A stretch of 64,000 bases of DNA from Patescibacteria group bacterium (GCA_032117075.1 JAUMAA010000003.1:41574-105573); one strand, 5' to 3'. Shown: positions 7,211 through 51,511, counted from the first letter of the stretch. Notes: a model not told the origin generated them from the sequence alone. Made by a program: numbers and translations.

Positions 7211-7311
7211 GAGCGATTAAGGTGGTGGGCAATTTTATTGCCCACCACCAAAATCAAAATTCATTTTTATCAAATTTTTTATTTTTCAAGAATACTCTAA
7301 AAAAGGAATAT

Positions 7312-7340
7312 TTGACTAAACTATTATAGGTTAGTATAAT
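7312..7340 (+). promoter_or_regulatory. Consensus sigma70 promoter TTGACT-17nt-TATAAT
   Basis: TTGACT 7312-7317, 17-nt spacer, TATAAT 7335-7340. Drives the 7375-7962 two-gene unit. Confidence 0.5.
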
Positions 7341-8715: not shown

Positions 8716-11226
8716 ATGGATAGTAAGAATATAAAAATAGGTATAGATTTAGGTACAACCAACTCAGAAGTATGTATTAGCAATAAAGGAAATCTTGAAA
8801 TAATCAAGAATAGATTTGGAAATGAGTTTACCCCCTCAGTTCTTTGGATTGATAAATCTTTAAATAAGCAAATAGGACAAAAAGCTTATGAAAATTTCTT
8901 TAACCTATTAGAACAGCAAAATGTTAAATCAGAAATTAAAAGACTGATGGGAACTAATGAAAAAGTCAAATTTCCTAGACTTGATAAAGAAATGACTCCT
9001 GAAGAGATTTCTGCAGAAATTTTAATCTCTCTAAAAGAAGATATTAAAAGAAAATATAATGATTTTGATTTAAACTATGCTGTTATAACAGTACCGGCAT
9101 ATTTTAGTATTCTTCAATCAGAAGCTACTAAAAGGGCTGGTGAAATTGCTGGTTTTAAGCACGTAGTTTTATTACAGGAGCCGATTGCGGCTGCAGTAGC
9201 ATACGGATTTATGAATTCAACTAACGAAACTTGGGTTGTTTATGACTTAGGTGGAGGAACTTTTGATGTAGCTTTAGTTAACTCTAAAGACGGGCTGCTT
9301 TCTGTTATAGCTCATAATGGAGATAACTTTTTAGGTGGAAAAGATTTTGATGCAGAAATTGTTTATCAGAAAGTTATTCCAGAATTAAAAGAACAGTTCA
9401 ACTTAGAAAACCTTTCAATTGAGGATGAAGAATTTAAAAAAATATTTAATATTTTGAAATATAGAGCTGAACAAGCCAAAAAAGAACTAACTTCTTATGA
9501 AGAAACTTCTATCGATATTGATAATATCGGTGAAGACGAAGATGGGGTAGAAATTAATACCACTATTAAACTCACAAAAAAAGAATTTGAAAATATTATT
9601 AGAGATAAAGTTTCAAAAACTATAGAATTAACCAAAGAGACTATAAAATCCTCAGGAATTGATCAAAACATGATTAAAAAAGTAATTTTAGTAGGGGGAC
9701 CTACTCAAATTCCTTATATTAGAGAAAGAATTGCCAAAGAATTAAAAATTGAGGTTGACACCTCATTAGACCCACTTTCTGCGGTTGCTAAAGGAGCTTG
9801 TATCTATGCCATGAGTCAAAATGTCCCAGATACTGTTTTTGATAAAAATAAAAAACAATTAATGGAGGGGGAGATGAGCTTAAAATTGGAATATAGGTCA
9901 TTATCGTCAGAAATTGAAGAAAATATTTATGGTTTATTAGAAAATATAGAACAAGATAAAGAGTATTTTGTACAAATACAATCAGATTCAAATCATTTCA
10001 GCAGTCCAAAAACCAAAATAAATAATGGAAAGTTTTTTAAAGAAGTTAATTTAGAAAAAAATAAAACAAATATTTTTTATATTTATATCTTCGATGAAAA
10101 AGGTAATATTATCAAAACTTCCCCAGATTCATTTTCAATAACTCAAGGCTTATCAATTGCAGGAGCACCTATTTCACATTCAATTGGTATTGTAGTAGCC
10201 GATAGAAATGAAAGCTTAGGAGAAAAAGAATTTAGAGATACATATTTAGTAGTTTTTGAAAAAGGATCAATTCTTCCTTTAAAAGATACTAGGACATTTA
10301 AAACAGTTAAAAAACTAGTGAAGAATGAAAAGAATGCAACATTAGATATTGTAGTAGGAGAGGGGGAGTCTAAAATTCCAGATAGAAATACATTTATTTG
10401 TACACTAGGAATAAATGGCCAAGAACTTCCGTACGATCTTCCATCAGGAACTGAAGTTGAAATCACAATTGAAGTAAACGAATCAAGGGAGGTATCAGTA
10501 GCTGCTTACTTCCCATTAATAGATAAAAAGTATAACGGCAGATCTTCTTTACTTTCTAGAGAAGTGGATTTAGAAAAAATTGAAGAAGAATTAGAAACTG
10601 AAAGCATGCGAATTGATGACATCTCAAAAAATATATCAGAGAATGCTTCAGACGAACTTAGAGAAAAACTTAGAAGTGTATACCATACAGTAAGAGGAGC
10701 TACAAGCGGTGTAGAGGAGAAAGAAAAAGCCGATAAAGAACTTAGAGAATTAAAAGTTTCTATTGATGAGCTTCAAGAGAAATCTGAAATGCCAAAACTA
10801 ACCAATCTATTCAGTGAATTAGTAAAGGATTCTAAAGAGTTTATTGAAACATATGCTTCGGAAGAAAAAAAAGATATATTTACTAAAAAACTTACACATT
10901 TAGAGACAGACGGGAACGAGGCTATAAAAAATAAAGACAAAAGAAAAATAAATCAAGTAATTGAATTACTTGAAGATTTAAAAGGAGAAATCATCTATTC
11001 TAACGATGCAACATGGATTTATCAGTTTAGAAAACTCTCAACTGAAGTTCTAAATTATACAAACTATTCAGATGCTCAATATTATATTAAAAAGGGCAAC
11101 GATGCTTTAATAAAAAACGATGTCGAAGAAATTAAAAGATGTGTTAGAAATTTATTACAGCTTCTAGAGAGGCCAGAAACCTTTGAGGGAAGTGATAGAA
11201 ACACAATATCTGGTATAAGAAAGTAA
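8716..11226 (+). CDS. Atypical Hsp70-family protein (836 aa): complete actin-like NBD, about 100-aa insertion, SBD-beta-like region, long helical C-terminal extension
   Basis: IGIDLGTTNS, VITVPAYF, DLGGGTFDV, LVGGPTQIPYIRE, DPLSAVAKGA Hsp70 NBD motifs. A later segment (IVVGEGESKIPDRNTFICTLGINGQ..PSGTEVEITIEVNESREVSVAAY) resembles the DnaK SBD-beta motif (V.qGER......LG.F.L.GI.....G.P.IEVTFDID.NG). Confidence 0.85.
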   Translation: MDSKNIKIGIDLGTTNSEVCISNKGNLEIIKNRFGNEFTPSVLWIDKSLNKQIGQKAYENFFNLLEQQNVKSEIKRLMGTNEKVKFPRLDKEMTPEEISAEILISLKEDIKRKYNDFDLNYAVITVPAYFSILQSEATKRAGEIAGFKHVVLLQEPIAAAVAYGFMNSTNETWVVYDLGGGTFDVALVNSKDGLLSVIAHNGDNFLGGKDFDAEIVYQKVIPELKEQFNLENLSIEDEEFKKIFNILKYRAEQAKKELTSYEETSIDIDNIGEDEDGVEINTTIKLTKKEFENIIRDKVSKTIELTKETIKSSGIDQNMIKKVILVGGPTQIPYIRERIAKELKIEVDTSLDPLSAVAKGACIYAMSQNVPDTVFDKNKKQLMEGEMSLKLEYRSLSSEIEENIYGLLENIEQDKEYFVQIQSDSNHFSSPKTKINNGKFFKEVNLEKNKTNIFYIYIFDEKGNIIKTSPDSFSITQGLSIAGAPISHSIGIVVADRNESLGEKEFRDTYLVVFEKGSILPLKDTRTFKTVKKLVKNEKNATLDIVVGEGESKIPDRNTFICTLGINGQELPYDLPSGTEVEITIEVNESREVSVAAYFPLIDKKYNGRSSLLSREVDLEKIEEELETESMRIDDISKNISENASDELREKLRSVYHTVRGATSGVEEKEKADKELRELKVSIDELQEKSEMPKLTNLFSELVKDSKEFIETYASEEKKDIFTKKLTHLETDGNEAIKNKDKRKINQVIELLEDLKGEIIYSNDATWIYQFRKLSTEVLNYTNYSDAQYYIKKGNDALIKNDVEEIKRCVRNLLQLLERPETFEGSDRNTISGIRK

Positions 11227-11227
11227 A

Positions 11228-12655
11228 ATGTCATTTCATAATAATTCTTATTTTATACTAGACTTAAATTCTAATTCAACCGATAAACAAATTCTAAAAA
11301 AATCAAACAATATGCTTTTAAAGATTAAAGCAGAAATAGATATAAATGAAGAAATTCATCATGAATTAGATTTAAGAATTGAAAGAAACGAACATACTAT
11401 AAATGAAGCGACTAAAAAACTAACTTTTCCAAAGAAAAAATTAGAAGAATTTTTTTTCTGGTTTGAGCTAGAGAATGAAACAGACCATCATTTCTATAAA
11501 CTTCTTTCACAAAAAAACTTCATCCAAGCTATTAAATTTTTAAAAAAAGGAATTGAAGAAGATGAGTTAAGAAAATTTAAATACGAGAAAAACTTAGCAC
11601 TATGTTTTCTACTTATGCTAAATATTGATTATGATGAATCTATACTTTTAGAATCGATAAATTTATGGAAAAAATTAATTCATAATTCAAGTTTTTGGGC
11701 TGAGTTTTTTGATAAATATAGAACAAAAGAAGAGGGACTGGTTAATAAAGATTTAATGATTGAATTTAAATCTGAAATAGAAAATTTGATCTTTGAAGAA
11801 TATGAACATATTTCTAGCAGCTATCCAAAAGAAAGAATTATTGAAAAATTATTTACAATTTTAAAACCTCAAAATACTAGTATCTTTTCAAAATATTTAG
11901 AAAAATATATCTCTAAAGTTAACTCAATTTTAGAAAAATTTAATTCAATGGAATTCAAAGATAATAAAATAGGACAAATACAGAAAAATAAAATATCTGA
12001 AAATTTAGATAAATTAAAAGAATTATTTAATTATTTTGAATCTTTAGGGCTAGAAAATGAATCATCTATTAAAATACTGGGGGACGAGGTAGCCCAAAAT
12101 CTAGAGAGCCTATCTATTAAAATTAACAATCAGATTAAAGATTATGAAACATCTTATAAAATACTATCTATAGCATTGAAGTTTGTTGAAAGCAGCTCTA
12201 TTAAAAAAGGTATTGAAACAAATCTTGCAATAATAATTGAAAATAGAGAAGTTATAGCATTAAACACAATATATGAACTAATAAGAAGTGCAAAATTTGC
12301 ATCTGCATTAGTTTCAATTGATTATTTACTAAAGGATAGAAACACAAAAGATGAAACCAAAAAAACTTTAAGGGAACTAAAAGATAAAATTAAAGTGAAC
12401 AGAGATATGGATAAAACACTAATGAAAAACAAACCACTTTTATTTGATATTTTTGGGTTTGGGTTATTGTTGTATGGAGATATTAGATATCTTACATTTT
12501 TTTACATTCCAGTCTGCCCAATTTCAAGCTATAATACAATTAATAATTATGATGGTTCTACTTCATTTTTAGGAGAAAAGGAACTGGATTCCTTTTACTA
12601 TGGTTGGAAAGTAGTCTTCATAGCAGGAGTAATAATTTGGTTGTTAAGTAACTAA
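11228..12655 (+). CDS. Hypothetical helical protein with two C-terminal TM helices; N-terminus resembles a J-domain with degenerate HPD (speculative)
   Basis: YFILDLNSNSTDKQILKKSNNMLLKIKAEID aligns to the J-domain consensus YYEILGVSKTAS..EIKKAYRKLAMKYHPD, with HPD replaced by AEI. Hydrophobic C-terminus. Confidence 0.5.
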   Translation: MSFHNNSYFILDLNSNSTDKQILKKSNNMLLKIKAEIDINEEIHHELDLRIERNEHTINEATKKLTFPKKKLEEFFFWFELENETDHHFYKLLSQKNFIQAIKFLKKGIEEDELRKFKYEKNLALCFLLMLNIDYDESILLESINLWKKLIHNSSFWAEFFDKYRTKEEGLVNKDLMIEFKSEIENLIFEEYEHISSSYPKERIIEKLFTILKPQNTSIFSKYLEKYISKVNSILEKFNSMEFKDNKIGQIQKNKISENLDKLKELFNYFESLGLENESSIKILGDEVAQNLESLSIKINNQIKDYETSYKILSIALKFVESSSIKKGIETNLAIIIENREVIALNTIYELIRSAKFASALVSIDYLLKDRNTKDETKKTLRELKDKIKVNRDMDKTLMKNKPLLFDIFGFGLLLYGDIRYLTFFYIPVCPISSYNTINNYDGSTSFLGEKELDSFYYGWKVVFIAGVIIWLLSN

Positions 12656-12657
12656 AA

Positions 12658-13152
12658 GTGGGAAAATACGAATACGATACAAATTTAAATAATGATATAC
12701 CCTTTGAGACAAATCCTAATGTTACAAATAAAAAAGAACCTAATAGATTTGGTAGTGGAATAATTGTTTTAGTTATCATAGGAATTTTAGGTTACTTAAT
12801 CTCAACAAATAAAAACACTTCTATAAACAGTTCAAACAATGGTTCCAGCGATTCGAGTATTGTAGAATCAGGAAACGATACATATATTTGTTCTAAATAT
12901 AATATTTCTAAACTAAAAGATCTTACCCCAAGCTCAATCCTAAAAAATGAAATTGACGATTTAGAAAATAAACAAAATAAACTTGAAAGAGAATTGGATT
13001 CTATAGATCCTGATAGCAATCCTTATTTATATAATTCCAAAGTTGACGAATATAATGATATTGTTAGTAAATTAAAAGTAAAACTAAGCAACTACAATCA
13101 ACAAGTTGATAACTATAATGATTATTTAATTAAAAATTGTAATAAAAAATGA
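12658..13152 (+). CDS. Membrane-anchored coiled-coil protein
   Basis: Single TM (GIIVLVIIGILGYLIST), then a Ser/Asn-rich linker and a heptad-like helical region. Overlaps the next gene by 4 nt. Confidence 0.5.
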   Translation: MGKYEYDTNLNNDIPFETNPNVTNKKEPNRFGSGIIVLVIIGILGYLISTNKNTSINSSNNGSSDSSIVESGNDTYICSKYNISKLKDLTPSSILKNEIDDLENKQNKLERELDSIDPDSNPYLYNSKVDEYNDIVSKLKVKLSNYNQQVDNYNDYLIKNCNKK

Positions 13153-14216
13153 AACCCTTACTTTATAATAATTATAAAATTTCAGAAAACCTATTTGTAG
13201 TGAAAAGAGAAGAAAAAATTTTCTTTACTGAAATTTATAGTCTTTCAGATGGAAATTATCTTTTCTTATTTTTAAATATTAAACCAGATGAAGTGGTAAA
13301 TATAAATCAAGAATTAGAAATTGTAAAATTAAACATTGGAGGAGAAAACTATTTAGGTGTAATAGCTGACAGCTTTTCAGGAGAAAAAATTTATGAAATT
13401 TCTGAAAAACTCACTCAAATAAAAGGTTTGGATAGTGTTGCTGGAATGAAAGAATTGAAAAATCTTTTATATAATGAGGTCATAGAACCCTTAAGAAACC
13501 CAGAAAAGTTTAAAAAATTTAAAATATCAATACCTAACGGAATTTTACTTTTTGGACCTCCAGGCTGTGGTAAAACTTATATTGTAAAAAAATTGGCCGA
13601 AGAGTTAGGTTATTCGTTTATAGAACTTAACCCTTCTTCAGTTGCATCCCCCTATATTCACGGTGCAGTTTCAAATATCGGAAAAGTTTTTGAGATGGCA
13701 AGACTTCAAGCACCGTCTATTATCTTCATTGATGAAATAGAAGGATTACTTCCAAAAAGAGAAGATTTAGGATCCCATGCAGATACTAAAAAAGAGGAAA
13801 TAAATGAATTTTTACTCCAGCTAAATAATTCCAGTGAGAGCAATGTTTTAGTTGTAGGAGCTACAAATAGACCATCTATTATTGATTCGGCAATTTTAAG
13901 ATCAGGAAGAATGGACAAAAGAATATATGTAGGTCCACCGGATTATGAGTCAAGAAAAGAGTTGTTCAAACTTTCTCTATTAGGCAGACCTTTTGATAAT
14001 AAAATTAATTTGGACAAACTAGCTAAAGTTACTGAAAATTATGTAAGTTCTGATATATCTTTGATAGTTAATCAATCCGCAAGAAATGCACTTCAAAATA
14101 ACCAAGAGTATATAACAGAAGAAAATATTTTAAATATAATAAAAAATACTATTCCATCCATCTCAGAAGAGGATTTGAACTACTATCAGAACTATAGAAA
14201 TCTTGAAAGGTGGTAA
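13149..14216 (+). CDS. AAA+ ATPase, classical clade (Vps4/katanin/FtsH-like single AAA domain) with an N-terminal domain of about 120 aa
   Basis: Walker A GPPGCGKT, Walker B IIFIDEIE, SRH ATNRPSIIDSAILRSGRMDKRIYVGPPD. Confidence 0.85.
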   Translation: MKPLLYNNYKISENLFVVKREEKIFFTEIYSLSDGNYLFLFLNIKPDEVVNINQELEIVKLNIGGENYLGVIADSFSGEKIYEISEKLTQIKGLDSVAGMKELKNLLYNEVIEPLRNPEKFKKFKISIPNGILLFGPPGCGKTYIVKKLAEELGYSFIELNPSSVASPYIHGAVSNIGKVFEMARLQAPSIIFIDEIEGLLPKREDLGSHADTKKEEINEFLLQLNNSSESNVLVVGATNRPSIIDSAILRSGRMDKRIYVGPPDYESRKELFKLSLLGRPFDNKINLDKLAKVTENYVSSDISLIVNQSARNALQNNQEYITEENILNIIKNTIPSISEEDLNYYQNYRNLERW

Positions 14217-17142: not shown

Positions 17143-17155
17143 TAACCTATAATAT

Positions 17156-17183
17156 TTGCAAAGGTAGAAAATTTTGTTATAAT
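17156..17183 (+). promoter_or_regulatory. Sigma70-like promoter TTGCAA-16nt-TATAAT for small peptide cassette A
   Basis: TTGCAA 17156-17161, TATAAT 17178-17183. The predicted TSS falls at the start of the GTTGCTGAGGT box (17190-17200). Confidence 0.45.
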
Positions 17184-17213
17184 ACTGGGGTTGCTGAGGT
17201 AGAGGGAGGTGCT

Positions 17214-17444
17214 ATGAGTTTGATATACTCGATAATTGGTTTTTGTTGGAAGTTTTTGCTAGCCATCTACAATATAGCCATCAAATTGGGGATTGTAGCA
17301 TCAGCTGTAGGATCAATAACTTTGTTGATGATTTTCTTAATGGGATATATCTCATTAGATTATCTCTGGAAAGGAGAAATAGTTATACTTGTAAGTGGCC
17401 TAATTTTAGGCTTTTTAAACAAGGTACTATTTGACGATCTTTAA
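17214..17444 (+). CDS. Small hydrophobic membrane peptide (76 aa), family with 21751-21924 (shared Y..KGEI motif)
   Basis: GAGGGAGG RBS. Two or three TM helices. Flanked by GTTGCTGAGGT (17190-17200) and its perfect complement ACCTCAGCAAC (17471-17481). Confidence 0.5.
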   Translation: MSLIYSIIGFCWKFLLAIYNIAIKLGIVASAVGSITLLMIFLMGYISLDYLWKGEIVILVSGLILGFLNKVLFDDL

Positions 17445-17511
17445 AAAAATTACTCCAAACTAATCTATTAACCTCAGCAACAACACAATTTTTCCTATAT
17501 AATGATTAAAT

Positions 17512-18231
17512 ATGAATAAAGAATATAATATTTCCAGAAGTAAAATTGATTTATTTATTGAATGTCCAAGATGTTTTTATCTTGATGTAAACGGGATTGT
17601 AAAAAGACCATCAGGACCTGGTTTTTCATTAAATTCTGCCGTAGACGAACTTTTAAAAAAAGAATTCGATTTACTTAGAGAAGAAAAAAAACCTCACTCA
17701 TTAATGGAGAAATTTGGAATAAGAGCAATCCCATACCAACATCCAGAATTAGATAAATTTCGACACAACTTTACCGGAGTTAGATATAAACATCCAAACG
17801 GAATTACTTTTTTTGGAGCTGTTGATGACCTTTGGATCAATGAAAATGGAGAAATTCATGTTGTTGACTATAAAGCAACCTCTACATCTGCGGAAGTTAC
17901 TTTAGAAGGGGAATACAAAGAAGGATACAAAAGACAAATTGAAATTTACCAATATCTTTTATCTAAAAATAATTTTCCTATTTCAAATATTGGATATTTT
18001 GTCTATGCAAATGCTAGAAAAGATTTAGATGCTTTCAATGAAAAATTGATTTTTGATGTCAAAATTTTACCTTACGAAGCAAATAATTCTTGGATTGAGG
18101 AGGTAATTAGTAATCTTTACAAAACATTAAGTAGCGAAGAGATACCTCTGCCAAATGAAACTTGTAAATATTGTGATTACATCAAAAAATATAATCAAAG
18201 TTTAAATAATCAACAATTGAGATTGTTTTAG
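17512..18231 (+). CDS. Cas4-like PD-(D/E)xK nuclease (DUF83/RecB-family) with four Cys
   Basis: N-terminal ECPRCFYL (Cas4-like CPR..YL), motif II VDDLW, motif III VVDYKAT, QxxxY (RQIEIYQYLL), C-terminal CKYCDY. Confidence 0.65.
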   Translation: MNKEYNISRSKIDLFIECPRCFYLDVNGIVKRPSGPGFSLNSAVDELLKKEFDLLREEKKPHSLMEKFGIRAIPYQHPELDKFRHNFTGVRYKHPNGITFFGAVDDLWINENGEIHVVDYKATSTSAEVTLEGEYKEGYKRQIEIYQYLLSKNNFPISNIGYFVYANARKDLDAFNEKLIFDVKILPYEANNSWIEEVISNLYKTLSSEEIPLPNETCKYCDYIKKYNQSLNNQQLRLF

Positions 18232-21057: not shown

Positions 21058-21655
21058 AGATTTATTCAATACTTTAGTTCCTGTAGTTGTTGAAAAAGAA
21101 GGTAATTACGAGAGATCGTACGATATCTACTCAAGACTACTTAAAGATTTTATTATTTTCGTTACAGGACCTATAGATATGGCAACAGCCAATACATTTA
21201 TTGCTCAAATGTTATTTTTAGAAGCAACTGACCCTACCAGAGACATAAAAATTTATATCAATTCTCCAGGAGGGGAAGCTTATTCTGGAAGAGCTATGTT
21301 TGATACAGTTAGACATGTAAAAAATGATGTTGTTACTATCAATACAGGACTTTGTGCATCTGCTGCCGCTTTACTTTTATGTTCTGGAACTAAAGGTAAA
21401 AGATACTCACTTCCAGGTGCTCATACTATGATTCACCAAACATTGGGTGGGGCAGAAGGACAAGCAACTGATGTTGAGATTTATGCAAAACAAATGGTTA
21501 AAATGAAACATGATTATGCCAAACTAATTGCAGTAGCCTCAGGAAAATCTTTTGAAGAGGTCTTAAAAGACATTGAAAGAGACAACTGGATGGACTCACA
21601 AGAAACTAAAGATTACGGAATCATAGATGAAGTAATTGAACCTGCAAAGAAATAA
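21044..21655 (+). CDS. clpP: ATP-dependent Clp protease proteolytic subunit ClpP
   Basis: Catalytic Ser context GLCASAAALL, His MIHQ, typical ClpP length. Confidence 0.9.
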   Translation: MMKNKDLFNTLVPVVVEKEGNYERSYDIYSRLLKDFIIFVTGPIDMATANTFIAQMLFLEATDPTRDIKIYINSPGGEAYSGRAMFDTVRHVKNDVVTINTGLCASAAALLLCSGTKGKRYSLPGAHTMIHQTLGGAEGQATDVEIYAKQMVKMKHDYAKLIAVASGKSFEEVLKDIERDNWMDSQETKDYGIIDEVIEPAKK

Positions 21656-21679
21656 TCTAAATAAAAATAACCTATAATT

Positions 21680-21708
21680 TTGACTTGACCTTGAATTTGA
21701 GGTATAAT
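21680..21708 (+). promoter_or_regulatory. Consensus sigma70 promoter TTGACT-17nt-TATAAT for small peptide cassette B
   Basis: TTGACT 21680-21685, TATAAT 21703-21708, followed 6 nt later by GTTGCTGAGGT (21715-21725). Confidence 0.5.
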
Positions 21709-21750
21709 ATATTCGTTGCTGAGGTTAGATCATACGAGAGGAGATCTAAT

Positions 21751-21924
21751 ATGAGACTGTTAGATATACTGGTTTGGGGCCTAAGATGGTCAATTACCTT
21801 AATCTTTTTCCTTCTTTTGGTAAGTATGTCTATGACATATTTTACAAAAGGGGAGATAATGAGTGTGGAACCACTGTTTAGTTCCGGGGTAACAACGGCG
21901 GTACTCTGGTACTTCAAAGACTAA
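21751..21924 (+). CDS. Small hydrophobic membrane peptide (57 aa), homolog of 17214-17444 (Y.TKGEI motif)
   Basis: GAGAGGAG RBS. Same flanking boxes: GTTGCTGAGGT upstream, ACCTCAGCAACAACACAA at 21941-21958. The track ORF begins further upstream (21685), but the RBS supports 21751. Confidence 0.5.
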   Translation: MRLLDILVWGLRWSITLIFFLLLVSMSMTYFTKGEIMSVEPLFSSGVTTAVLWYFKD

Positions 21925-22009
21925 CCAACAAAACTATCAAACCTCAGCAACAACACAAATTTCAATTTCTAATCAATTCTTAATAATATTGTATAATTAA
22001 CCATACTGT

Positions 22010-22086
22010 GGTCTGTTAGCTCAGTTGGTTAGAGCGCTTCAGTGACATTGAAGAGGTCATTGGTTCGAATCCAATACGGACCACCA
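22010..22086 (+). tRNA. tRNA-Val (anticodon GAC), 77 nt, CCA encoded
   Basis: Hand-folded: acceptor ggtctgt/acggacc (one G-U), D-arm gctc..gagc, anticodon stem cttca/tgaag with loop guGACau, T-arm attgg-TTCGAAT-ccaat, terminal ACCA. Confidence 0.85.
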
Positions 22087-24497: not shown

Positions 24498-25004
24498 ATT
24501 ATAAAAATTTATAGAATAAATGAAAGAATAAAGGCACCTACTCTTAGAGTAATTGGGCCTACTGGTGAAAATTTTGGTGTTATAACCTTAGATGAAGCTA
24601 AGAAAAAAGCGGAGGAGTTAGAAAAAGACTTGGTATTAATTGCGGAAGAAGCAAAGCCCCCAGTAGCTAAAATTCTTGATTTTAATAAATTTTTATACGA
24701 AGAGAGAAAAAAAGAATCAGCAGCAAAAGCTAAATCCAAAAAGAGTGAGTTAAAAGAGTTAAGACTGTCATCAACTATTGGAGAAGGAGACTTGATGCAA
24801 AGAGTTAATAGGGCTAAAGAGTTCTTATCAGAGAATAATAGGGTCAAATTCAATCTAAAACTAAGAGGTAGAGAATTTATGAACCCAAAGTTAGCTTTTG
24901 AGAAGGTTAACAGGGTTCTTTCAGAACTATCAGAGGTTGGGAGAGCGGAAGAAGAGCCAAAAGTAGTAAATAAGAGCATAATAGTAGTTGTTTTAAAAAA
25001 GTAA
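24498..25004 (+). CDS. infC: Translation initiation factor IF-3, with non-AUG (AUU/AUA) start
   Basis: The frame is open from 24483 with no ATG. The N-terminal INERIKAPTLRVIGPTGENFGVITLDEA..LVLIAEEAKPPVAKILDFNKFLYE matches IF3. AAGGA RBS precedes ATT (24498)/ATA (24501). Followed by rpmI-rplT. Confidence 0.8.
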   Translation: MIKIYRINERIKAPTLRVIGPTGENFGVITLDEAKKKAEELEKDLVLIAEEAKPPVAKILDFNKFLYEERKKESAAKAKSKKSELKELRLSSTIGEGDLMQRVNRAKEFLSENNRVKFNLKLRGREFMNPKLAFEKVNRVLSELSEVGRAEEEPKVVNKSIIVVVLKK

Positions 25005-31822: not shown

Positions 31823-33016
31823 ATGGAACAAGAAAAAATTCATGAACTTTTATTTAGAAATATCGATGAAATATTACCTTCCAAAGAATTTCTTCTTTCA
31901 AAAGTAGAGAAGGGCGAAAAGATTAAAATTTACCACGGAATAGACCCTACCTCAGAAACATTACATATAGGACATTTGGCAGCTTTAAAGAAAATGAAAC
32001 ATTTTCAAGAACTAGGATGGGAAGTTATTATTTTAATGGGCGGGATGACAGCAACAATTGGGGACCCGAGTGGAAAATCAAAAGTAAGAAATAAACTTAC
32101 AGTTTCAGATGTAAATAAAAATATTGAAAAAATTAAGAAACAAATTGAAAAAGTAATCTCATTTGATGGAGCAAACAAAGCATCTCTTCTTAACAACTAT
32201 GATTGGCTATCAAAATTAAATTTTGAAGAGATAGTTGAATTATCATCAAATATTACTCATGAACAAATGATTGAGAGAGACATGTTTCAAGAAAGAATGA
32301 AAAATCACGAACCAATATACATGCATGAATTTATGTACCCACTCATGCAGGGATTTGATTCAGTAGAAATGGATGTCGATGCGGAATTAGGAGGAAGTGA
32401 CCAACTTTTCAATATGATGATGGGAAGAACTTTACTTAAAAAAATTAAGGGTAAAGAAAAATTTGTAATTACAATTCCACTATTAACAGATTCGAATGGG
32501 AAAAAAATTGGAAAATCAGAAGGAAATATAATTCCTTTTGCAAACGGTAATCCTTACGAAACATTTGCTGGAATTATGACCTTAGGAGATAGTGTAATAA
32601 TCAAATGTTTTGTAGCACTTACCGATGTATCTTTGGAAGAAGTTTCAATCATGGAGATTGACATGCAAAAAAATGGAGCCAATCCTATGGTCTATAAAAA
32701 GCTTTTAGCCTTCACCTTAGTTAAGGAAATTTACAACGAAGAAGAAGCTAAAAAATGCCACGAAGAATTTGAAAAAACAGTACAAAATAAAGAATTTTCC
32801 GAGAACCAATCTGTAGAAATTGAAGTACAGGAGGAAGAAAAAGTATTAGATTTTTTAAAAAGAAATTTAACAGGATTCTCCAACTCTGAAATTAAACAAG
32901 TAATTGAACAAAACGGTCTTTTAATAAATAATGAAAAAGTATCCGATTTAAACTTTTTAATTAAAAAAGGAGACGAAATTAAATTTGGGAAGAAAAACTT
33001 TTTTAGATTAAAATAA
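31823..33016 (+). CDS. tyrS: Tyrosine--tRNA ligase
   Basis: HIGH motif (TLHIGHL), KMSKS-like KIGKSEGN, C-terminal S4-like domain. Confidence 0.8.
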   Translation: MEQEKIHELLFRNIDEILPSKEFLLSKVEKGEKIKIYHGIDPTSETLHIGHLAALKKMKHFQELGWEVIILMGGMTATIGDPSGKSKVRNKLTVSDVNKNIEKIKKQIEKVISFDGANKASLLNNYDWLSKLNFEEIVELSSNITHEQMIERDMFQERMKNHEPIYMHEFMYPLMQGFDSVEMDVDAELGGSDQLFNMMMGRTLLKKIKGKEKFVITIPLLTDSNGKKIGKSEGNIIPFANGNPYETFAGIMTLGDSVIIKCFVALTDVSLEEVSIMEIDMQKNGANPMVYKKLLAFTLVKEIYNEEEAKKCHEEFEKTVQNKEFSENQSVEIEVQEEEKVLDFLKRNLTGFSNSEIKQVIEQNGLLINNEKVSDLNFLIKKGDEIKFGKKNFFRLK

Positions 33017-37540: not shown

Positions 37541-38227
37541 ATGGATATACTGAGTAAACTAAATGAACAATTAAAATTGGATTTAACAAATAATGAGTTG
37601 TTTATGACAGCTTTTACCCATAGGTCATATTTAAACGAACATCCAACCTACCAGTTACCTTCAAATGAAAGATTAGAATTTTTAGGAGATGCTGTTTTAC
37701 AATTTCTCTCCTCAAAACATTTATTTCAATCCTATTCCTCATTACCTGAGGGGGATCTTACCAATTTAAGAGCATCGATTGTTAAGACTCAGTCTTTATC
37801 AGAAGAGGCTAAAAAACTCAATTTTGGTCAATTTCTTTTAATGTCCAAGGGGGAGGAAGTGACTGGGGGAAGGGATAGAGAATACCTTTTAGCTAATACA
37901 TTTGAGTCATTTCTTGGAGCCCTTTATCTTGAAAAAGGTATTGAGGCTTGTGAGAAATTTCTTGAAAATAACTTATTTTATAAACTAGAAAATATTTTTA
38001 AAGAAGATGCCTATAAAGACTTTAAAACAAGATTTCAGGAAAAGGTTCAAGAGCTTAAAAAAGGAACACCAACATACAAAATCCTAGAAACTTCCGGACT
38101 AGAACATGAAAAAATCTTCAAAGTAGCAGTTCTTGTTGAAAATGAGGAGTTCACAAAGGGAGAGGGTACCTCAAAACAAAGAGCAGAGCAGGATGCTGCC
38201 AAAAAAGGATTAGACAAATTAAAGTAA
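37541..38227 (+). CDS. rnc: Ribonuclease III
   Basis: ERLEFLGDAVL RNase III signature, C-terminal dsRBD. Confidence 0.9.
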   Translation: MDILSKLNEQLKLDLTNNELFMTAFTHRSYLNEHPTYQLPSNERLEFLGDAVLQFLSSKHLFQSYSSLPEGDLTNLRASIVKTQSLSEEAKKLNFGQFLLMSKGEEVTGGRDREYLLANTFESFLGALYLEKGIEACEKFLENNLFYKLENIFKEDAYKDFKTRFQEKVQELKKGTPTYKILETSGLEHEKIFKVAVLVENEEFTKGEGTSKQRAEQDAAKKGLDKLK

Positions 38228-38569: not shown

Positions 38570-39206
38570 AATTAAGATTAATATCATTACATTATTTCCA
38601 AATCTATTTAACGAATTCAAAAGTGTACTCCCATTTAAAAGGGCACTTGAAAAAAATTTAATTGAATTAAATATTATCAATCTCAGAGATTTCGCAATTG
38701 ATGAAAGAGGAACAGTGGATGATAAGCCTTACGGAGGAGGGACAGGGATGATATTAAGAGTAGAACCAATTGTTAAGGCCTTAGAAACAATTGAAGAAAA
38801 AGAAGAAATAATCGTTTTAAATCCCAAAGGACAACTATTTAATCAAAACTTAGCTAAAGAATTTAAAGAAAAAACTTCACTAACTTTTATTTGCGGAAGG
38901 TATGAAGGAATTGATCAAAGAATAATAGACAACTATGCTACAAAGGAAGTCTCAATAGGAGAATATGTTTGCAGTGGTGGTGAAGCTCCAACTATTGTCA
39001 TGTTAGAGGCAATAATAAGATTATTACCTGAAGTTTTAGAAGAAGAAGTTACAAATGATGAATCATTTGAAGATAGTACATTTGAGTACCCTCAATACAC
39101 TAGACCTGAAAATTTTAATGGATTAAAAGTTCCAGATGTTTTAATTTCAGGCAACCACAAAGAAATTGAAAAGTGGAAAAAAGATAATTCGAGAAAATTA
39201 AATTAA
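38562..39206 (+). CDS. trmD: tRNA (guanine37-N1)-methyltransferase TrmD
   Basis: DDKPYGGGTGMIL and the SPOUT-fold core. rpsP-trmD synteny. Confidence 0.9.
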   Translation: MPKIKINIITLFPNLFNEFKSVLPFKRALEKNLIELNIINLRDFAIDERGTVDDKPYGGGTGMILRVEPIVKALETIEEKEEIIVLNPKGQLFNQNLAKEFKEKTSLTFICGRYEGIDQRIIDNYATKEVSIGEYVCSGGEAPTIVMLEAIIRLLPEVLEEEVTNDESFEDSTFEYPQYTRPENFNGLKVPDVLISGNHKEIEKWKKDNSRKLN

Positions 39207-39859
39207 TTTTGAGAAACAGTTTCTTCTAAATATCTATTGATAAAATCAGTAAATTTCATATCATTTAAAATATCATTTATAGGTGCATCTATTGAGGACT
39301 GAACTTTGGTCTTATTAAATACTGTTCTAGCAACAAACGAAACTCTGTAATATTTATTATCTCGATCATCAAATAACTCCAAATCTCTAATATTTATAAT
39401 CTTTCCTTTATTACTATTTAGAGATGTGAGGTAATTTAATGCAGATAGGGGACCAACTGTTCTACCATTAAACCTTACTTCAATAACTCCTTGGTTGCTT
39501 AAATTCTGATCCGCTATATTTTTGTTTTCATCTATCTTATTGAAATTAAATTTCTCGGCTTCTGCTCCTAAATTTGCAACTAATGGAGCAGGGGACTCAT
39601 CGTTAGGAACTAGCTCTACCATCTTTTCTTCGTATCTATTTAAATCATCAGCTTTATCTCTAGCATTTTGCAGGATATTTAATTTAGTTTGATAATTTGT
39701 AATTTGTAAATTTTTACCATCCCTGGTTGAATCTAATTCAGATTTAATATTTAAGTAAGGCATTATAAGTAACAAATTTATTATTGCAATTAAAGTAATA
39801 AAAATTACTGGAAAAATGAAGTATTTTAAATAAATAGTGAAGTCTTTTTTATCTGACAT
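39203..39859 (-). CDS. Type IV pilus assembly protein PilO-like (bitopic)
   Basis: N-terminal TM plus periplasmic domain; position after PilM/PilN. Confidence 0.5.
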   Translation of the reverse strand: MSDKKDFTIYLKYFIFPVIFITLIAIINLLLIMPYLNIKSELDSTRDGKNLQITNYQTKLNILQNARDKADDLNRYEEKMVELVPNDESPAPLVANLGAEAEKFNFNKIDENKNIADQNLSNQGVIEVRFNGRTVGPLSALNYLTSLNSNKGKIINIRDLELFDDRDNKYYRVSFVARTVFNKTKVQSSIDAPINDILNDMKFTDFINRYLEETVSQN

Positions 39860-40418
39860 TTAAGAGTCCTTTATTATATTTTACAGTAACAACATATTCT
39901 TTGGAAACCTCATTAACATCCTCAGGCACACCAGAGTTGCTAAATAAGTTTTCAATATTTGAGTCATTTACTTTAGAAGCTTTTAAGTTATCAACAAATC
40001 TTTTAAATGCAGTTGAGTCAGCGGTAACTCTTACCGAAACAAGGTCTTTATCGGTATCTACCGTAATAGTTTTAATAACCACACCTCCAGAAATATTTCG
40101 TTCATAAATATCTCTCATAACTTTTTCGTATAAAACCTTATCTCCTTCAAATTTTTGAGCAGCATCAAATCTAGCTTTAATATCTCTTAACTGAATTTCT
40201 TCCTTAGAATATTCCGCAATGTCTTTTCTCAAGGAAGTTAGTTTTGAATCTAGACTATCTTTTTCATTTTTCAATGGCTGTAAAAGAGTATTAAAATAGT
40301 AGCCCAAACTCCCGACCGCAAGCATTGTTAATATCAAAAAAATATTCGCAATCTTGGTATAAAGCTGAATTTTTTGCTCTAATTTCTCTTCTGATGTTAG
40401 TAAATTTATTTCACTCAT
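39849..40418 (-). CDS. Type IV pilus assembly protein PilN-like (bitopic, coiled coil)
   Basis: Short N-terminus, TM, coiled coil; directly downstream of pilM. Confidence 0.55.
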   Translation of the reverse strand: MSEINLLTSEEKLEQKIQLYTKIANIFLILTMLAVGSLGYYFNTLLQPLKNEKDSLDSKLTSLRKDIAEYSKEEIQLRDIKARFDAAQKFEGDKVLYEKVMRDIYERNISGGVVIKTITVDTDKDLVSVRVTADSTAFKRFVDNLKASKVNDSNIENLFSNSGVPEDVNEVSKEYVVTVKYNKGLLNVR

Positions 40419-41440
40419 AAAATCTCAATTCCTGATAGACCTATTGGTGCAGATAGAGAGGAGGATAATTCTTTTAAACTTCCTTCATACTTACTTAAAT
40501 CAGAATTGACTTTAACTTTATTAAAAGGATTAAATACCTCTACAGGTATATTTAAATTTTTCTGCAAGTAATCCTCAAGACCAGGTAATTTAGCCATTCC
40601 CCCTGTTAGATAAATTTTAGAAATATTCATGTTTTTATTCTTATCCATAAAATAAATTACTGACCTCTTAATATCAAGTATATATGAATCTATTAAAGGT
40701 TTTAAGAAATTAAAAATCTTTCCCTCCGCGACTTGAGGATTTAGACCGTAAGCCTTTTTATAATTCTCAGCTTGGATATTTGTTAGATTTAAATTCTGAA
40801 TTAAAGCTTTATTTAAGGAATTAGATCCTATTGAGATAGTTTTAATAAATCTTGGAACTCTTTTATAAGAAACATGTAAAGTAGAGAACTGGTACCCAAA
40901 ATCAAGAATCATAACAGCATCTTTACCATCTTTAATATCTATAATTCTAGATAAGGAAATTGTTTTTGCTTCAAATACTTTAGGGGTTAGGCCTGCTTTT
41001 TTAATTAAATCAACATATCTTTCGATTCTTTCTTTTTTAGCTGCCACAATTAAAATTTCAACATTAGTAGAATCTTTTTGATCAATAATTTTGTAATCAT
41101 AAGTTAAATTAGCAATATTCTCGGGAAAAATCTCAGCTGCTTGGAGATTAATATAGTTTCGGATTTCTTTATCACTCATCTTAGGAATGACTTTTACATT
41201 CAAATAAACATCTGTCTCGGGTAACGATAAAGAAACTTCATTAGTAGGAAAATCAAGTTCTTTAAAAAATTCCTTTAACTTGAAAGAATATAAATTTATA
41301 GCTTCTTCGTTATTGAAATCCAATTTTAATTTTTCTGATTCATATATTGCAAAATTTAAAATAGTAGGGGACTTTGAAACCAAACCAACCTCAACACATT
41401 TGATGCTATGATTTCCTAAATCTATTCCAATATGAGTCAT
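40415..41440 (-). CDS. pilM: Type IV pilus assembly ATPase-like protein PilM (actin fold)
   Basis: N-terminal IGIDLGNHSIKCVEV and the actin-like ATPase fold length. Confidence 0.8.
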   Translation of the reverse strand: MTHIGIDLGNHSIKCVEVGLVSKSPTILNFAIYESEKLKLDFNNEEAINLYSFKLKEFFKELDFPTNEVSLSLPETDVYLNVKVIPKMSDKEIRNYINLQAAEIFPENIANLTYDYKIIDQKDSTNVEILIVAAKKERIERYVDLIKKAGLTPKVFEAKTISLSRIIDIKDGKDAVMILDFGYQFSTLHVSYKRVPRFIKTISIGSNSLNKALIQNLNLTNIQAENYKKAYGLNPQVAEGKIFNFLKPLIDSYILDIKRSVIYFMDKNKNMNISKIYLTGGMAKLPGLEDYLQKNLNIPVEVFNPFNKVKVNSDLSKYEGSLKELSSSLSAPIGLSGIEIL

Positions 41441-41464
41441 ATAATTTATTATACTTAATTTTAG

Positions 41465-41947
41465 TTATTGTTGATATGTTTTATTCAAAGTAATTCTTTT
41501 TTCAAATTTAACTTCTGTTTTTAATCTTGAATTATTAAAATCTTTAGAAATACCAAAGGAAATATAAACAACTTGTGGGTTAGTTCCAGTTACTGTAAGA
41601 ACAAAAGGTGCTGATTTACCTATCTCTGAATCAGTTAATTGAATATTATCTAGTACCAACATGCTACTTGATTCTATAAAGGAAAGAGTAAAAGTTTTAG
41701 TTGGGTAAACAATCGATAACTTTTTACTTACAGAATTGTATGAAACAGAGTCAGAATCTTGAATTAATTTAGTAAGTTTAACATTTAGAAATGAGTACTC
41801 CTCTTCAAGAGAAATTTTATTTTGAATTTTAGTTGAGGTGGATGTTAGGCTAATAATCATATCTGAAGAAATTACGGATACGACTGTAATTAGTAAAACT
41901 ACTACCAAGAGTTCGACTAGAGTAAAACCCTTATTATTTAATCTCAC
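41465..41947 (-). CDS. Prepilin-type minor pilin/pseudopilin
   Basis: NKGFTLVELLVVVLLI class III signal peptide (G-F-T-L-x-E). Confidence 0.7.
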   Translation of the reverse strand: MRLNNKGFTLVELLVVVLLITVVSVISSDMIISLTSTSTKIQNKISLEEEYSFLNVKLTKLIQDSDSVSYNSVSKKLSIVYPTKTFTLSFIESSSMLVLDNIQLTDSEIGKSAPFVLTVTGTNPQVVYISFGISKDFNNSRLKTEVKFEKRITLNKTYQQ

Positions 41948-42414
41948 TGTCTAGTCCTCCAATTTGTAAAAATAGTATCAGTAGAAGATGAGAAGAGAAT
42001 TTTATTGGTTTCATAATAACTAACTACTTGAATATTTATTTCCACTATAGGTAAAGATGAGAGTGGTTCTGTGGTTACCTTAAAGCAAGTAAGTCCTTTT
42101 TGAACTGGAGAAGGGCAACTTGTAAAATTATTAGTCGATGGATTAGGAAAATAACAATAAGTATTAGTACATCTACTATTTAATTCTGTCGAAAAAGAAT
42201 CAAACCCAGTATCTTTGATAACTCTTAATTTTTCTAAAACATTTGATGAGTTTTTAGTTGCTTCTTGTCTCTCTGTAACATTAAGTGAATTTTGAATATT
42301 GAAAGTGGTGAGAGAAAGGAGTGCAACCACTAATACAACTGCAAATGCTATAGCTAAGACAGCTTCAACTAATCCTATTCCTTTATTATTTACTTTGAGC
42401 ATAGATTCTTCCAA
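41944..42414 (-). CDS. Prepilin-type minor pilin (PilV-like)
   Basis: NNKGIGLVEAVLAIAF prepilin N-terminus. Confidence 0.6.
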   Translation of the reverse strand: MEESMLKVNNKGIGLVEAVLAIAFAVVLVVALLSLTTFNIQNSLNVTERQEATKNSSNVLEKLRVIKDTGFDSFSTELNSRCTNTYCYFPNPSTNNFTSCPSPVQKGLTCFKVTTEPLSSLPIVEINIQVVSYYETNKILFSSSTDTIFTNWRTRQ

Positions 42415-42820
42415 ATTTATTAATAATTACATTAAATGATGGGAAATTGATTGTTACAGAAATCAAATTATTATTTTGATCAACTAAGTTACCATATCTA
42501 TCTATAAAAAAATTTGAGGTACTTGATCCTGAAATAAAGTCATAGTTTGTTTCTTTACATTCATTTAACTCAACAGAGCAAGTAGTTACTTTCAAACCGG
42601 CAAAGTTCATAGAATATTTGTTATCCGTTGTTAAGGCAAGGTTTTGAGTTGTTCTAAATGTAGAAATAAAATTTTTAACTTCTTCGTTTTCAGCTTGTTT
42701 TCTCTGATAATTTAAAATAGAAGGAATCGAAAGACCTGCAATTACAATTATCAATACAATCACAACAAGAAGTTCGATAAATGTAAAACCAGAATTTGAA
42801 TTAAGCTTCTTTATCTGCAT
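42386..42820 (-). CDS. Prepilin-type minor pilin
   Basis: NSGFTFIELLVVIVLI. Confidence 0.7.
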   Translation of the reverse strand: MQIKKLNSNSGFTFIELLVVIVLIIVIAGLSIPSILNYQRKQAENEEVKNFISTFRTTQNLALTTDNKYSMNFAGLKVTTCSVELNECKETNYDFISGSSTSNFFIDRYGNLVDQNNNLISVTINFPSFNVIINKFGRIYAQSK

Positions 42821-43335
42821 TAAGGACCTGTAACAGGAGCCAGACCTCCACTAACCTTAAATACATTACTTTTAACTAAATCGCAACTAGAAAACAGCCC
42901 TGAGGTAGGATCCATACTTTCTTTAGGTATCTCTAGGATAAATTCTTGACCTCTGGGGATTCCAAAATTACTACTTTCTTTAATTGAATAAACCTCATAA
43001 TAACTTTGAGTTATATTAGTTACATAAATGTAATCGCAGGAAGTATTTTCAGATGGATCGTATAAGGAAACTTTAACATTAAAAGAACTTAGCTCCGAGA
43101 TAGCTGAAGGGTATCTTTTGTATTCAGAGTAGTAGAGTTCTAAAGCAGAAGCAATCTGTGAAAGAGAAGATACTCTTAGAGCGTCCCTTTGTTCCCTTTG
43201 TTTTTCGGCTGGATTAAAGATGACAATAGAAGTAGCTGCAAGTATCACCATTATTCCAACTACAATCATTAACTCTAGCAAAGTAAAACCTTTATTACTT
43301 ACATTAAATTTTTTGGTATATGAGCAGTTTTTCAT
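42820..43335 (-). CDS. Prepilin-type pilin
   Basis: NKGFTLLELMIVVGIMVILA. Confidence 0.7.
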   Translation of the reverse strand: MKNCSYTKKFNVSNKGFTLLELMIVVGIMVILAATSIVIFNPAEKQREQRDALRVSSLSQIASALELYYSEYKRYPSAISELSSFNVKVSLYDPSENTSCDYIYVTNITQSYYEVYSIKESSNFGIPRGQEFILEIPKESMDPTSGLFSSCDLVKSNVFKVSGGLAPVTGP

Positions 43336-43348
43336 TTTTTTCCTTTAA

Positions 43349-44218
43349 TTAATTATCTAAAAATAGAGCATAATCATAAATAGATGATGGTGTATCCAGA
43401 TATTTAAATGCCTCAACTCTTCTGGAGGTTTTATCAACTCCGTCAGTAAATACTCCTTTTGCAGTAATTTTGTACCCTTGAATTACATTTCTTACATTTG
43501 TACTGGTTGAAAAAACTTTAAGAGTACTTACTTCGTTGGAAAGAGGTTGAAATCTTATCATGTAAGAATTTGTAACTCTAAAGTAACCAGAGGCACAATT
43601 TCCTGTAATAGGAGAGATATTTTTATAAGAACTACCATCAAATAAATAGTTTTCAAGTAAATATTCGTTAGTTTTAACTCTGTTTACATTTGTAGTAGTT
43701 AGTGAATCTTCTACAGGTTCAAAAATTTGAATACTTGGGTTTGATGTAACAATACCAAGTCTATATGATGTATTTGGAGGGGACACTTCCAATTTAATAC
43801 ATGCAGTTTGAGGTAAAAGTACTCCGGCTCCTGAAAACTCGGTGGTTAAAAAAGTGACCGTCTCAGAAGGTTTAATTTTTTCGTAAACCATACCGGTACT
43901 TGAATTTGCATTTAATTTATCAACAGTAATGATTGCGGAAGTTCCGTTGTTTACAAAATCAATAGCTTCACTAAATTCCGTATTATCTACTAATAGATCT
44001 AAATCGGAGTCACTCTTTAATAAAAATTTTTCAAGGCCGCCTTCGGCGGCCGCTGTTACTTTTTGTAATGAATCCAAATTTCCAGTTCTTTTAAGGGATT
44101 CTGTACTTCTTGAGGTAATTCCTAAACCTACACCCAGTGTTACTGCCATTGCTACTACAACAATTAAGAGAACCTGACCTTTATTATCTAAATTGTTTGA
44201 CATATCTTTATTAATCAT
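43349..44218 (-). CDS. Pilus-associated protein with hydrophobic N-terminus (PilX-like?)
   Basis: NKGQVLLIVVVAMAVTLGVGLG hydrophobic helix lacking the Glu5; Thr/Ser/Val-rich. Confidence 0.4.
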   Translation of the reverse strand: MINKDMSNNLDNKGQVLLIVVVAMAVTLGVGLGITSRSTESLKRTGNLDSLQKVTAAAEGGLEKFLLKSDSDLDLLVDNTEFSEAIDFVNNGTSAIITVDKLNANSSTGMVYEKIKPSETVTFLTTEFSGAGVLLPQTACIKLEVSPPNTSYRLGIVTSNPSIQIFEPVEDSLTTTNVNRVKTNEYLLENYLFDGSSYKNISPITGNCASGYFRVTNSYMIRFQPLSNEVSTLKVFSTSTNVRNVIQGYKITAKGVFTDGVDKTSRRVEAFKYLDTPSSIYDYALFLDN

Positions 44219-44229
44219 ACTAGTAACTT

Positions 44230-47781: not shown

Positions 47782-47829
47782 ACTATTATTAAAACATATT
47801 TTATGAAAATAATTTTATAAAAACTAATT

Positions 47830-48588: not shown

Positions 48589-48600
48589 CTTAAAACCTAA

Positions 48601-49167: not shown

Positions 49168-49169
49168 AT

Positions 49170-50381: not shown

Positions 50382-50383
50382 AA

Positions 50384-51445: not shown

Positions 51446-51511
51446 ATTATAATTTACCTACTAAATTAATTGCCATATTTTAAATCTATATTATTTTCAA
51501 ATTAAATACAA

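Follow-up and report, generated by a model that had tools for sequence, protein, structure and literature searches.

A chromosomal stretch of 64,000 nucleotides (nt) from a Patescibacteria group bacterium (GCA_032117075.1, JAUMAA010000003.1:41574-105573), hereafter called the window, carries two small gene cassettes, A and B. In each of them a promoter-like site is followed by a short box, an open reading frame (ORF) for a small hydrophobic protein, and a second box complementary to the first (Table 1). The window has a G+C content of 31%. Its trigger factor has distant relatives (~40% identity) annotated as candidate division WWE3 or Patescibacteria, and the same genome is present in the Logan assembly SRR22423861 at 99.99% identity. 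Cassette A is located between the genes for a YgjP-like metallopeptidase and a PD-(D/E)XK nuclease, both in the window and in the other carriers, in some of which further genes also separate the metallopeptidase gene from the cassette. Cassette B is located between clpP and the gene for valine transfer RNA (tRNA-Val).

Table 1. Features of the two cassettes, with positions counted from the first nucleotide of the window (aa, amino acids; bp, base pairs; MFE, minimum free energy; UTR, untranslated region).
Cassette	Feature	Position	Strand	Basis or remark
A	Upstream element TAACCTATAAT	17143..17153	+	Directly 5' of the -35 hexamer; identical in B, same spacing; kept in orthologues
A	Promoter-like site TTGCAA-16-TATAAT	17156..17183	+	10/12 matches
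A	5' arm GTTGCTGAGGT	17190..17200	+	6 nt after the -10 hexamer; putative transcript 5' end; pairs with 17471-17481 (MFE and centroid folds); covariation
A	Shine-Dalgarno sequence GAGGGAGG	17202..17209	+	4 nt before ATG, 1 nt after the 5' arm; read from the sequence
A	ORF A, 76 aa, predicted two-helix hydrophobic protein, orphan family	17214..17444	+	dN/dS, AlphaFold2, profile searches
A	3' arm ACCTCAGCAAC	17471..17481	+	26 nt past the stop codon; repeat match, fold, covariation
A	Conserved unpaired tail AACACAA, then TTTTT	17482..17493	+	18-mer identical in A and B
B	Upstream element TAACCTATAAT	21668..21678	+	Identical to A
B	Promoter-like site TTGACT-17-TATAAT	21680..21708	+	11/12 matches
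B	5' arm GTTGCTGAGGTT, 12 bp	21715..21726	+	Sequence and fold
B	Local 5'-UTR hairpin TTAGATC...GATCTAA with Shine-Dalgarno sequence GAGAGGAG in the loop	21725..21749	+	MFE and centroid folds
B	ORF B, 57 aa, paralogue of A without the middle hydrophobic stretch	21751..21924	+	ORF scan, alignment
B	3' arm AACCTCAGCAAC	21940..21951	+	15 nt past the stop codon; sequence and fold
B	Unpaired tail AACACAA	21952..21958	+	Part of the shared 18-mer

There are exactly four copies of the 11-nt box GTTGCTGAGGT in the 64 kb, two on the plus strand at 17190-17200 and 21715-21725 and two as its reverse complement at 17471-17481 and 21941-21951. When up to one mismatch was allowed, six matches were found against 0.40 expected, and none of 100 shuffled sequences reached six. 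The two one-mismatch matches (1138-1148 and 31949-31959) fall in ORFs whose Pfam domains are Thy1 and tRNA-synt_1b (class I W/Y tRNA synthetase), and they appear to be chance occurrences. The 3' box is part of an 18-mer, ACCTCAGCAACAACACAA, which is identical at 17471-17488 and 21941-21958 (two found vs. 0.02 expected). The promoter-like site of cassette A has a TG ahead of the -10 hexamer and ranks among the best in the region, and that of cassette B is the best in the 7 kb scanned. In both cassettes the -10 hexamer ends exactly 6 nt ahead of the 5' box. Both ORFs are preceded by a strong, consensus-like Shine-Dalgarno sequence located outside the stem. The original prediction had described a near-consensus promoter ahead of cassette A and exact reverse-complement boxes around its ORF, had reported the same arrangement at a second locus, and had taken the boxes for a conserved element rather than chance. 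All of this was borne out, the last point by the shuffles as well as by the compensatory changes in orthologous cassettes described below. Inverted repeats near the other promoters of the window are A+T-rich and no more frequent than in shuffled sequence, and G+C-rich arms are present only at cassettes A and B; end-to-end repeats at promoters as a genome-wide habit were accordingly ruled out.

Peptide A used as the sole query gave no detectable homologue. Relatives were reached via the neighbouring trigger factor gene, which gave a graded series from 90% to 54% identity, and their loci were then retrieved. A profile of the small protein was built from the peptides recovered via synteny, and the contigs of its matches gave further cassettes. 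Profile searches found 10 proteins among 5.8 billion and four clusters among 1.84 billion representatives, and ORF B was recovered in them as P0126. The final set consisted of 10 distinct cassette sequences (the window and nine loci), with identical copies in five more loci (L062, L066, L067, L074, and L078). The carriers are related metagenomic Patescibacteria, from freshwater samples such as JGI 3300032093, 3300023179, and SRR22423861, whose trigger factors are 64-90% identical to that of the window. For cassette A, these are L065/L066 (90%), L063 (84%), the L071-L078 clade (~66-68%), and L079 (64%); the cassette is absent at this locus in L068 (78%) and L081 (60%). Carriers of cassette B were limited to the window genome and the L065/L067 lineage; L063, L069, L071, L079, and L081 lack it, and in them the tRNA gene directly follows clpP. 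Close relatives have gained and lost the cassettes.

Exact scans for the 18-mer gave 25 single matches in genome contigs and 36 in metagenome contigs, all in unrelated taxa and none with an upstream 5' box. By our own estimate from the collection size, ~17 matches are expected by chance in the genome contigs. Since the matches are at chance level and lack the 5' box, the exact boxes are private to the lineage. A scan of viral contigs for the -35/-10/GTTGCTG architecture gave 43 matches, none with a matching extended 3' arm or the upstream element, and distant BLAST searches of cassette A against plasmids and cassette B against phages gave nothing. The stored gene calls of the contigs miss cassette ORFs in several assemblies (L062 2473-2921; L065 7005-7363; L071 6500-6840). 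The family is therefore under-represented in protein databases, and any count of how widely it occurs that is made from proteins is a minimum. Another observation was that the DNA between the YgjP-like and PD-(D/E)XK genes is a variable spot (L063 5001-7004; L068 3106-5172; L081 5437-8189). A gene for a DUF2298 membrane protein (667-679 aa) is inserted in it together with cassette A in L063 and without the cassette in L068 and L081, and an extra gene of 71-88 aa with its own hairpin terminator is present in the L071 clade, L079, and L081.

The order of parts is common to every cassette. The sequence TAACC(T/C)ATA...TTG(A/C), ending in the -35 region, is followed by a 16-17 nt spacer, TATAAT, 4-6 nt, and the 5' arm; the Shine-Dalgarno sequence and the ORF follow 1-11 nt after the 5' arm, and the 3' arm begins 9-26 nt past the stop codon and is succeeded by an unpaired AACAC-containing tail. 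Promoters of the orthologues read TTGACT-17-TATAAT (11/12 matches), and the 5' arm starts 5-7 nt after TATAAT in every stem version. The shared 11-mer TAACCTATAAT, directly upstream of the -35 hexamer with identical spacing in A and B, was retained in L063, L065, and L071-L079 as TAACCTATA(AT/GC) or TAACCCATAG, despite divergence of the intergenic DNA around it. It may serve as an operator or an UP-like element. Its total count in the window is not above chance (5 vs. 3.6 expected); a third exact copy lies on the minus strand at 7323-7333, in an intergenic region ~70 nt before a hairpin at 7215-7255. The 11-mer was also considered as the -10 hexamer of a second promoter, and this was ruled out: in other clades it reads TATAGC or CATAGA, without a -35 partner.

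Five stem versions were found among the 10 distinct cassettes, and the arms are complementary within each cassette: GTTGCTGAGGT / ACCTCAGCAAC in window A, window B, and L065 B; GTTGCTGCG / CGCAGCAAC in L065 A; GTTGTTGTGGG / CCCACAACAAC in L063 A; GTGTTGCTGTACCT / AGGTACAGCAACAC in the L071 clade; and AATGTTGCGGTAGC / GCTACCGCAACATT in L079 A. A full-length MAFFT alignment across clades put gaps in the arms, so pairs were counted on an arms-only alignment with an artificial CTCTCTCTCT linker, which carries no information. In this alignment of 10 cassettes, comprising 13 pairs, 92% of the cells were paired. Seven of the 13 pairs had changed on both sides, and one-sided changes numbered zero. The observed covariation values were reached in none of 500 column shuffles, and pairing fell to 28-56% when the 3' partner was slid by 1-3 columns. 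Complementarity of the arms is kept by selection, cassette by cassette, in at least five sequence versions. RNAalifold run on full-length alignments independently predicted the same closing helix. Folding of the full transcript, proposed as a check in the original prediction, gave the end-to-end stem in both the MFE and the centroid structures of both putative transcripts (z = -3.8 for A and -5.4 for B). The 5' end of the transcript very probably pairs with its own 3' UTR.

The two cassettes of L065 differ in the inner stem sequence, each fitting its own partner, which argues for intramolecular pairing and not for a site shared by a DNA-binding protein. The same observation bears on the idea that the arms are operator half-sites through which a DNA-binding regulator loops the DNA over the small gene. 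The high conservation of the outer 7 bp and the further conserved element upstream of the -35 hexamer would fit such a regulator. Nevertheless, the variable inner half of the arm is complementary in every cassette and differs between A and B of one genome, which a shared regulator would not require, and we consider operator looping extremely improbable.

In cassette B, the stem comprises 12 bp in the window and 15 perfect bp in L065/L067, or 17 if extended through one G.U pair, the only wobble pair in any stem version. Three of the ~13 differences between the cassette B copies sit at the stem edges and lengthen the stem (L065 11521-11541/11747-11763 vs. window 21711-21726/21936-21951). A tract of ~410 nt (~21542-21953), from the last ~110 nt of clpP to the end of the 3' arm, is 94-99% identical to L065/L067, genomes which are otherwise ~75-86% identical here. 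The near-identity ends within a few nucleotides of the end of the 3' arm, and the next 100 nt are 59% identical. The promoter spacer and the synonymous sites are also identical in the tract (proportion of synonymous differences, pS, 0.055 vs. 0.72 for ORF A). By this pattern, the tract looks like the result of recent recombination or transfer rather than of selection. In addition, 27 nt of the cassette B 3' UTR (21921-21947), which take in the start of the 3' arm, show 78% complementarity to the adjacent tRNA-Val in its 5' half (22006-22032; acceptor and D arm). There is no mismatch in the first 9 nt, and the match as a whole is of borderline significance; either the origin of the UTR or pairing with the pre-tRNA could lie behind it.

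Several points weigh against an end-to-end RNA clasp. An A.A mismatch lies inside the L076 stem, the innermost position is a U.C mismatch in L073 and L075, and inner stem positions are unpaired in L065 A. No G.U pair is present among the 13 core pairs, so covariation alone cannot separate RNA pairing from maintenance of an inverted repeat at the DNA level. Conservation of the outer 7 bp (GTTGCTG/CAGCAAC) goes beyond what pairing alone would demand, with two covarying exceptions only, and these base pairs may also be read by something sequence-specific. We infer both the transcription start site, placed solely by its distance from the -10 hexamer, and the 3' end of the transcript from the sequence, and stabilization of the message by the clasp would be an analogy with other systems.

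A rival reading has the arms acting as DNA. They could serve as inverted recombination sites of an inverton in which the ORF flips against a fixed promoter, or as the ends of a mobile element, with complementarity kept by recombination. Inverted repeats of 11-16 bp flank the segment, as they would in an inverton, the core stem has no G.U pair, the stem changes are all from Watson-Crick to Watson-Crick pairs, and the outer core is conserved like a protein recognition site. The presence/absence polymorphism of the cassettes and the position of B in a recent recombination tract are likewise consistent with mobility. However, no recombinase, transposase, or reverse-transcriptase domain was found in the Pfam hits (own searches or those precomputed for L062) to the 64 window ORFs of at least 110 aa, a survey in which about a third of the ORFs had no Pfam hit at all and a 156-aa ORF (24509-24979) was left out. 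A single orientation was seen in all assemblies examined, i.e., the window, the nine loci, and the five loci with identical copies. The promoter lies outside the repeats, and every version keeps its 5' arm tied to the predicted start of transcription, which nothing about a DNA site would call for. Searches of the viral, plasmid, and phage collections turned up no copies. At the empty sites of L063, L069, and L071, the indel comprises the whole intergenic region, including the promoter and the downstream spacer; the repeats do not form its borders, and no target duplication accompanies it. A miniature inverted-repeat transposable element or another transposon was ruled out on the same grounds, since the extra DNA at cassette B spans from the clpP stop codon to the 5' end of tRNA-Val, well beyond the repeats, without duplication. 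Overall, pairing at the DNA level is very unlikely.

The 3' side of the cassettes raises another explanation, that the stem is the hairpin of an unconventional terminator or a 3'-processing signal which insulates the strong cassette promoter from the downstream gene. Such a role would be compatible with an RNA clasp; the downstream genes are the PD-(D/E)XK nuclease gene or tRNA-Val, each with its own promoter. The cassettes have no local G+C-rich hairpin terminator, and the neighbouring genes do have one. A G-poor, A/C-rich spacer of 7-11 nt and a T-run come after the 3' arm in most versions, and a separate promoter of the next gene begins at once (TTCAAA-17-TATAAT at 6327-6355 in L073; TATAAT at 17498-17503 in the window). 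The end of cassette B conservation at the arm also fits. Yet the T-run is 7-11 nt off the stem rather than adjacent to it, and while every clade has a tail with AACAC after the 3' arm, the T-run is missing in L079. A terminator scan reported nothing at either cassette end, and we know of no intrinsic terminator whose hairpin has a loop of 215-340 nt. We regard this explanation as quite unlikely. As for the nuclease gene downstream of cassette A, its TATAAT lies 8 nt before the ATG without a Shine-Dalgarno sequence (window 17498-17514; L073 6327-6364), an arrangement kept in relatives, and its messenger RNA (mRNA) is therefore probably leaderless.

Orthologues of ORF A showed ratios of nonsynonymous to synonymous substitution rates (dN/dS) of 0.11-0.26, with synonymous sites near saturation, which indicates that ORF A is a real gene under purifying selection. 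AlphaFold2 with the family alignment placed helices at residues 2-42 and 48-74 (predicted local distance difference test score, pLDDT, 77), and the product is predicted to be a two-helix hydrophobic hairpin. The small hydrophobic protein originally read from the sequence is hence a genuine one. Proteins of the A family have 76-99 aa and the B protein has 57 aa, and none of the cassette proteins matched Pfam, NCBIfam, or PHROG. ORF A is only 62% identical between genomes whose trigger factors are 90% identical. In L079, the syntenic protein is beyond recognition by the family profile, with the non-coding chassis still retained. That the non-coding chassis is better conserved than its protein points to selection on the handling of the message.

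Two other gene clusters were observed in the window. At 8716-14216, an 836-aa protein combines a Hsp70/actin-like ATPase N-terminal domain with a C-terminal half that has no assignment. Two proteins of 475 and 164 aa, both without a Pfam hit, and a 355-aa AAA+ ATPase follow it; the cluster is unusual and chaperone-like, or possibly defence-like. A type IV pilus gene cluster of ~14 kb (39206-53305) encodes PilM, pilins, a prepilin peptidase, PilC, and PilT/PilB.

The pairing is under selection, most likely as a clasp joining the two ends of an mRNA. We infer that both arms are on one RNA because of the position of the promoter and the lack of an intervening terminator. On this reading, each cassette is a self-contained gene, probably expressed at a high level, whose product is a small two-helix membrane protein specific to the lineage. 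In the mRNA, the first 11-16 nt would pair with the 3'-UTR segment past the stop codon, closing the whole message as a panhandle. A duplex starting at the 5'-terminal nucleotide, together with a buried 3' arm, could shield both ends from end-dependent ribonucleases (RNases), and the strong, exposed Shine-Dalgarno sequence beside the stem would let ribosomes keep loading, so that the message stays translated. Since sequence conservation breaks off at the 3' arm (from 94-99% to 59% in cassette B), this arm would be the unit's functional 3' boundary. The function of the clasp may lie in stability, 3'-end definition, or translational gating. Our best reading is that the upstream element, promoter, clasp, and AACAC tail make up a conserved chassis for the expression of a small membrane protein that evolves fast.

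The original prediction had likened cassette A to hok-type toxin mRNAs. The part of this analogy that stood is the pairing of the 5' and 3' ends combined with a small hydrophobic product; a conserved antisense promoter, conserved sequestration of the Shine-Dalgarno sequence, and homology to known toxins were not found. According to the toxin interpretation, the clasp keeps the full-length mRNA translationally inert until its 3' end is trimmed, as in hok and aapA1, and the product is a membrane toxin controlled by an RNA antitoxin. The end-to-end stem of 11-16 bp, with its seven covarying pairs out of 13, is a 5'-3' long-distance interaction of the kind recognised as a key determinant of type I toxin mRNAs (PMC8594479; PMC5416894). 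Small, hydrophobic, fast-evolving products and the gain and loss of cassettes between close relatives agree with this interpretation. In the L071 clade, RNAalifold paired the Shine-Dalgarno sequence with codons 13-16 with a few G.U variants, but this helix was predicted only there and is not conserved in the window/L065/L063 group, and the Shine-Dalgarno sequence of cassette B sits in a hairpin loop. The search for an antisense promoter within or opposite the ORF, which had also been suggested, revealed no conserved promoter-like site on the minus strand in or beside the cassette in the window, L073, and L063, representing three clades; a small RNA encoded in trans elsewhere in the genome is possible. 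Moreover, the proteins are helical hairpins of 57-99 aa and not single-helix peptides of less than 60 aa, and cassette A is syntenic and under purifying selection over the 64-90% range of trigger factor identity. No similarity to known families was found in Pfam, NCBIfam, PHROG, or Rfam; Rfam searches, run at the gathering threshold and again at E<=10, returned nothing beyond tRNAs and sub-threshold small nucleolar RNA and microRNA noise. We consider a fold-back toxin unlikely. A broader proposal, which we hold to be rather unlikely, is that the upstream element, promoter, clasp (core GUUGCUG/CAGCAAC), and AACAC tail form a portable RNA chassis, in which the mRNA of a membrane-active small protein would remain inert or end-protected until specific 3' processing, in a type I toxin-like or otherwise gated manner without a cis-antisense RNA.

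Intramolecular pairing of the 5' and 3' UTRs of bacterial mRNAs has been dissected experimentally in a handful of cases (hok, aapA1, hbs, and icaR), rarely with phylogenetic covariation. The cassettes offer a short and clean case, with at least five independently changed stem versions, in uncultured Patescibacteria with reduced genomes. To our knowledge, post-transcriptional control has been little studied in this group, and we know of no type I toxin-antitoxin system described from it. The system is small (about 300 nt per cassette). If the protein is toxic, type I-like logic would be extended to a new part of the bacterial tree; if it is not, the cassettes would represent a second, independent stabilizing clasp like that of hbs.

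Among known systems, the 5'-terminal stem-loop stabilizers (Escherichia coli ompA; Bacillus subtilis ermC and aprE leaders) have a duplex at or within a few nucleotides of the 5' end and a strong ribosome-binding site close after it, as do the cassettes. Those are local hairpins, whereas the partner strand in the cassettes is the 3' UTR, 215-340 nt away, and both ends are engaged. In Staphylococcus aureus icaR (PMC3868564), a 3'-UTR motif pairs intramolecularly with the 5' UTR, and both organisms encode RNase III. The icaR motif, however, pairs with the Shine-Dalgarno sequence itself and blocks initiation, whereas the cassette duplex lies upstream of it, and a stem of 11-16 bp is short for an RNase III substrate. 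The RNase III gene in the window is at 37541-38224, and its product could act on the cassette stems. The toxin mRNAs of hok/sok and aapA1/IsoA1 (PMC5416894; T1TAdb, PMC8594479) resemble the cassettes in encoding a small hydrophobic membrane protein, in the paired ends of the primary transcript, and in being compact stand-alone units. The cassettes differ in having no antisense promoter that could be found, no conserved Shine-Dalgarno sequestration, and no overlapping leader ORF, in their larger two-helix proteins (57-99 aa), and in a vertically inherited syntenic locus.

The counterpart nearest in function is the B. subtilis hbs mRNA, in which a 14-bp pairing of the 5' UTR with the 3' UTR modulates cleavage by RNase Y (Braun, Durand and Condon 2017, PMC5737220). 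Like the cassettes, hbs gives a short monocistronic mRNA that encodes a small protein behind a strong Shine-Dalgarno sequence and contains a long-range 5'/3'-UTR duplex of about 14 bp within one molecule. There is no sequence or protein homology between them. The hbs pairing is inside a long structured leader and overlaps the RNase Y site, whereas the cassettes have their 5' arm at the extreme 5' terminus, and the Shine-Dalgarno sequence comes 1-11 nt after it. The hbs duplex modulates the access of RNase and so the stability of the mRNA; by analogy, the cassette clasp may act in the same way, and we see the chances that it has an hbs-like role as evenly balanced.

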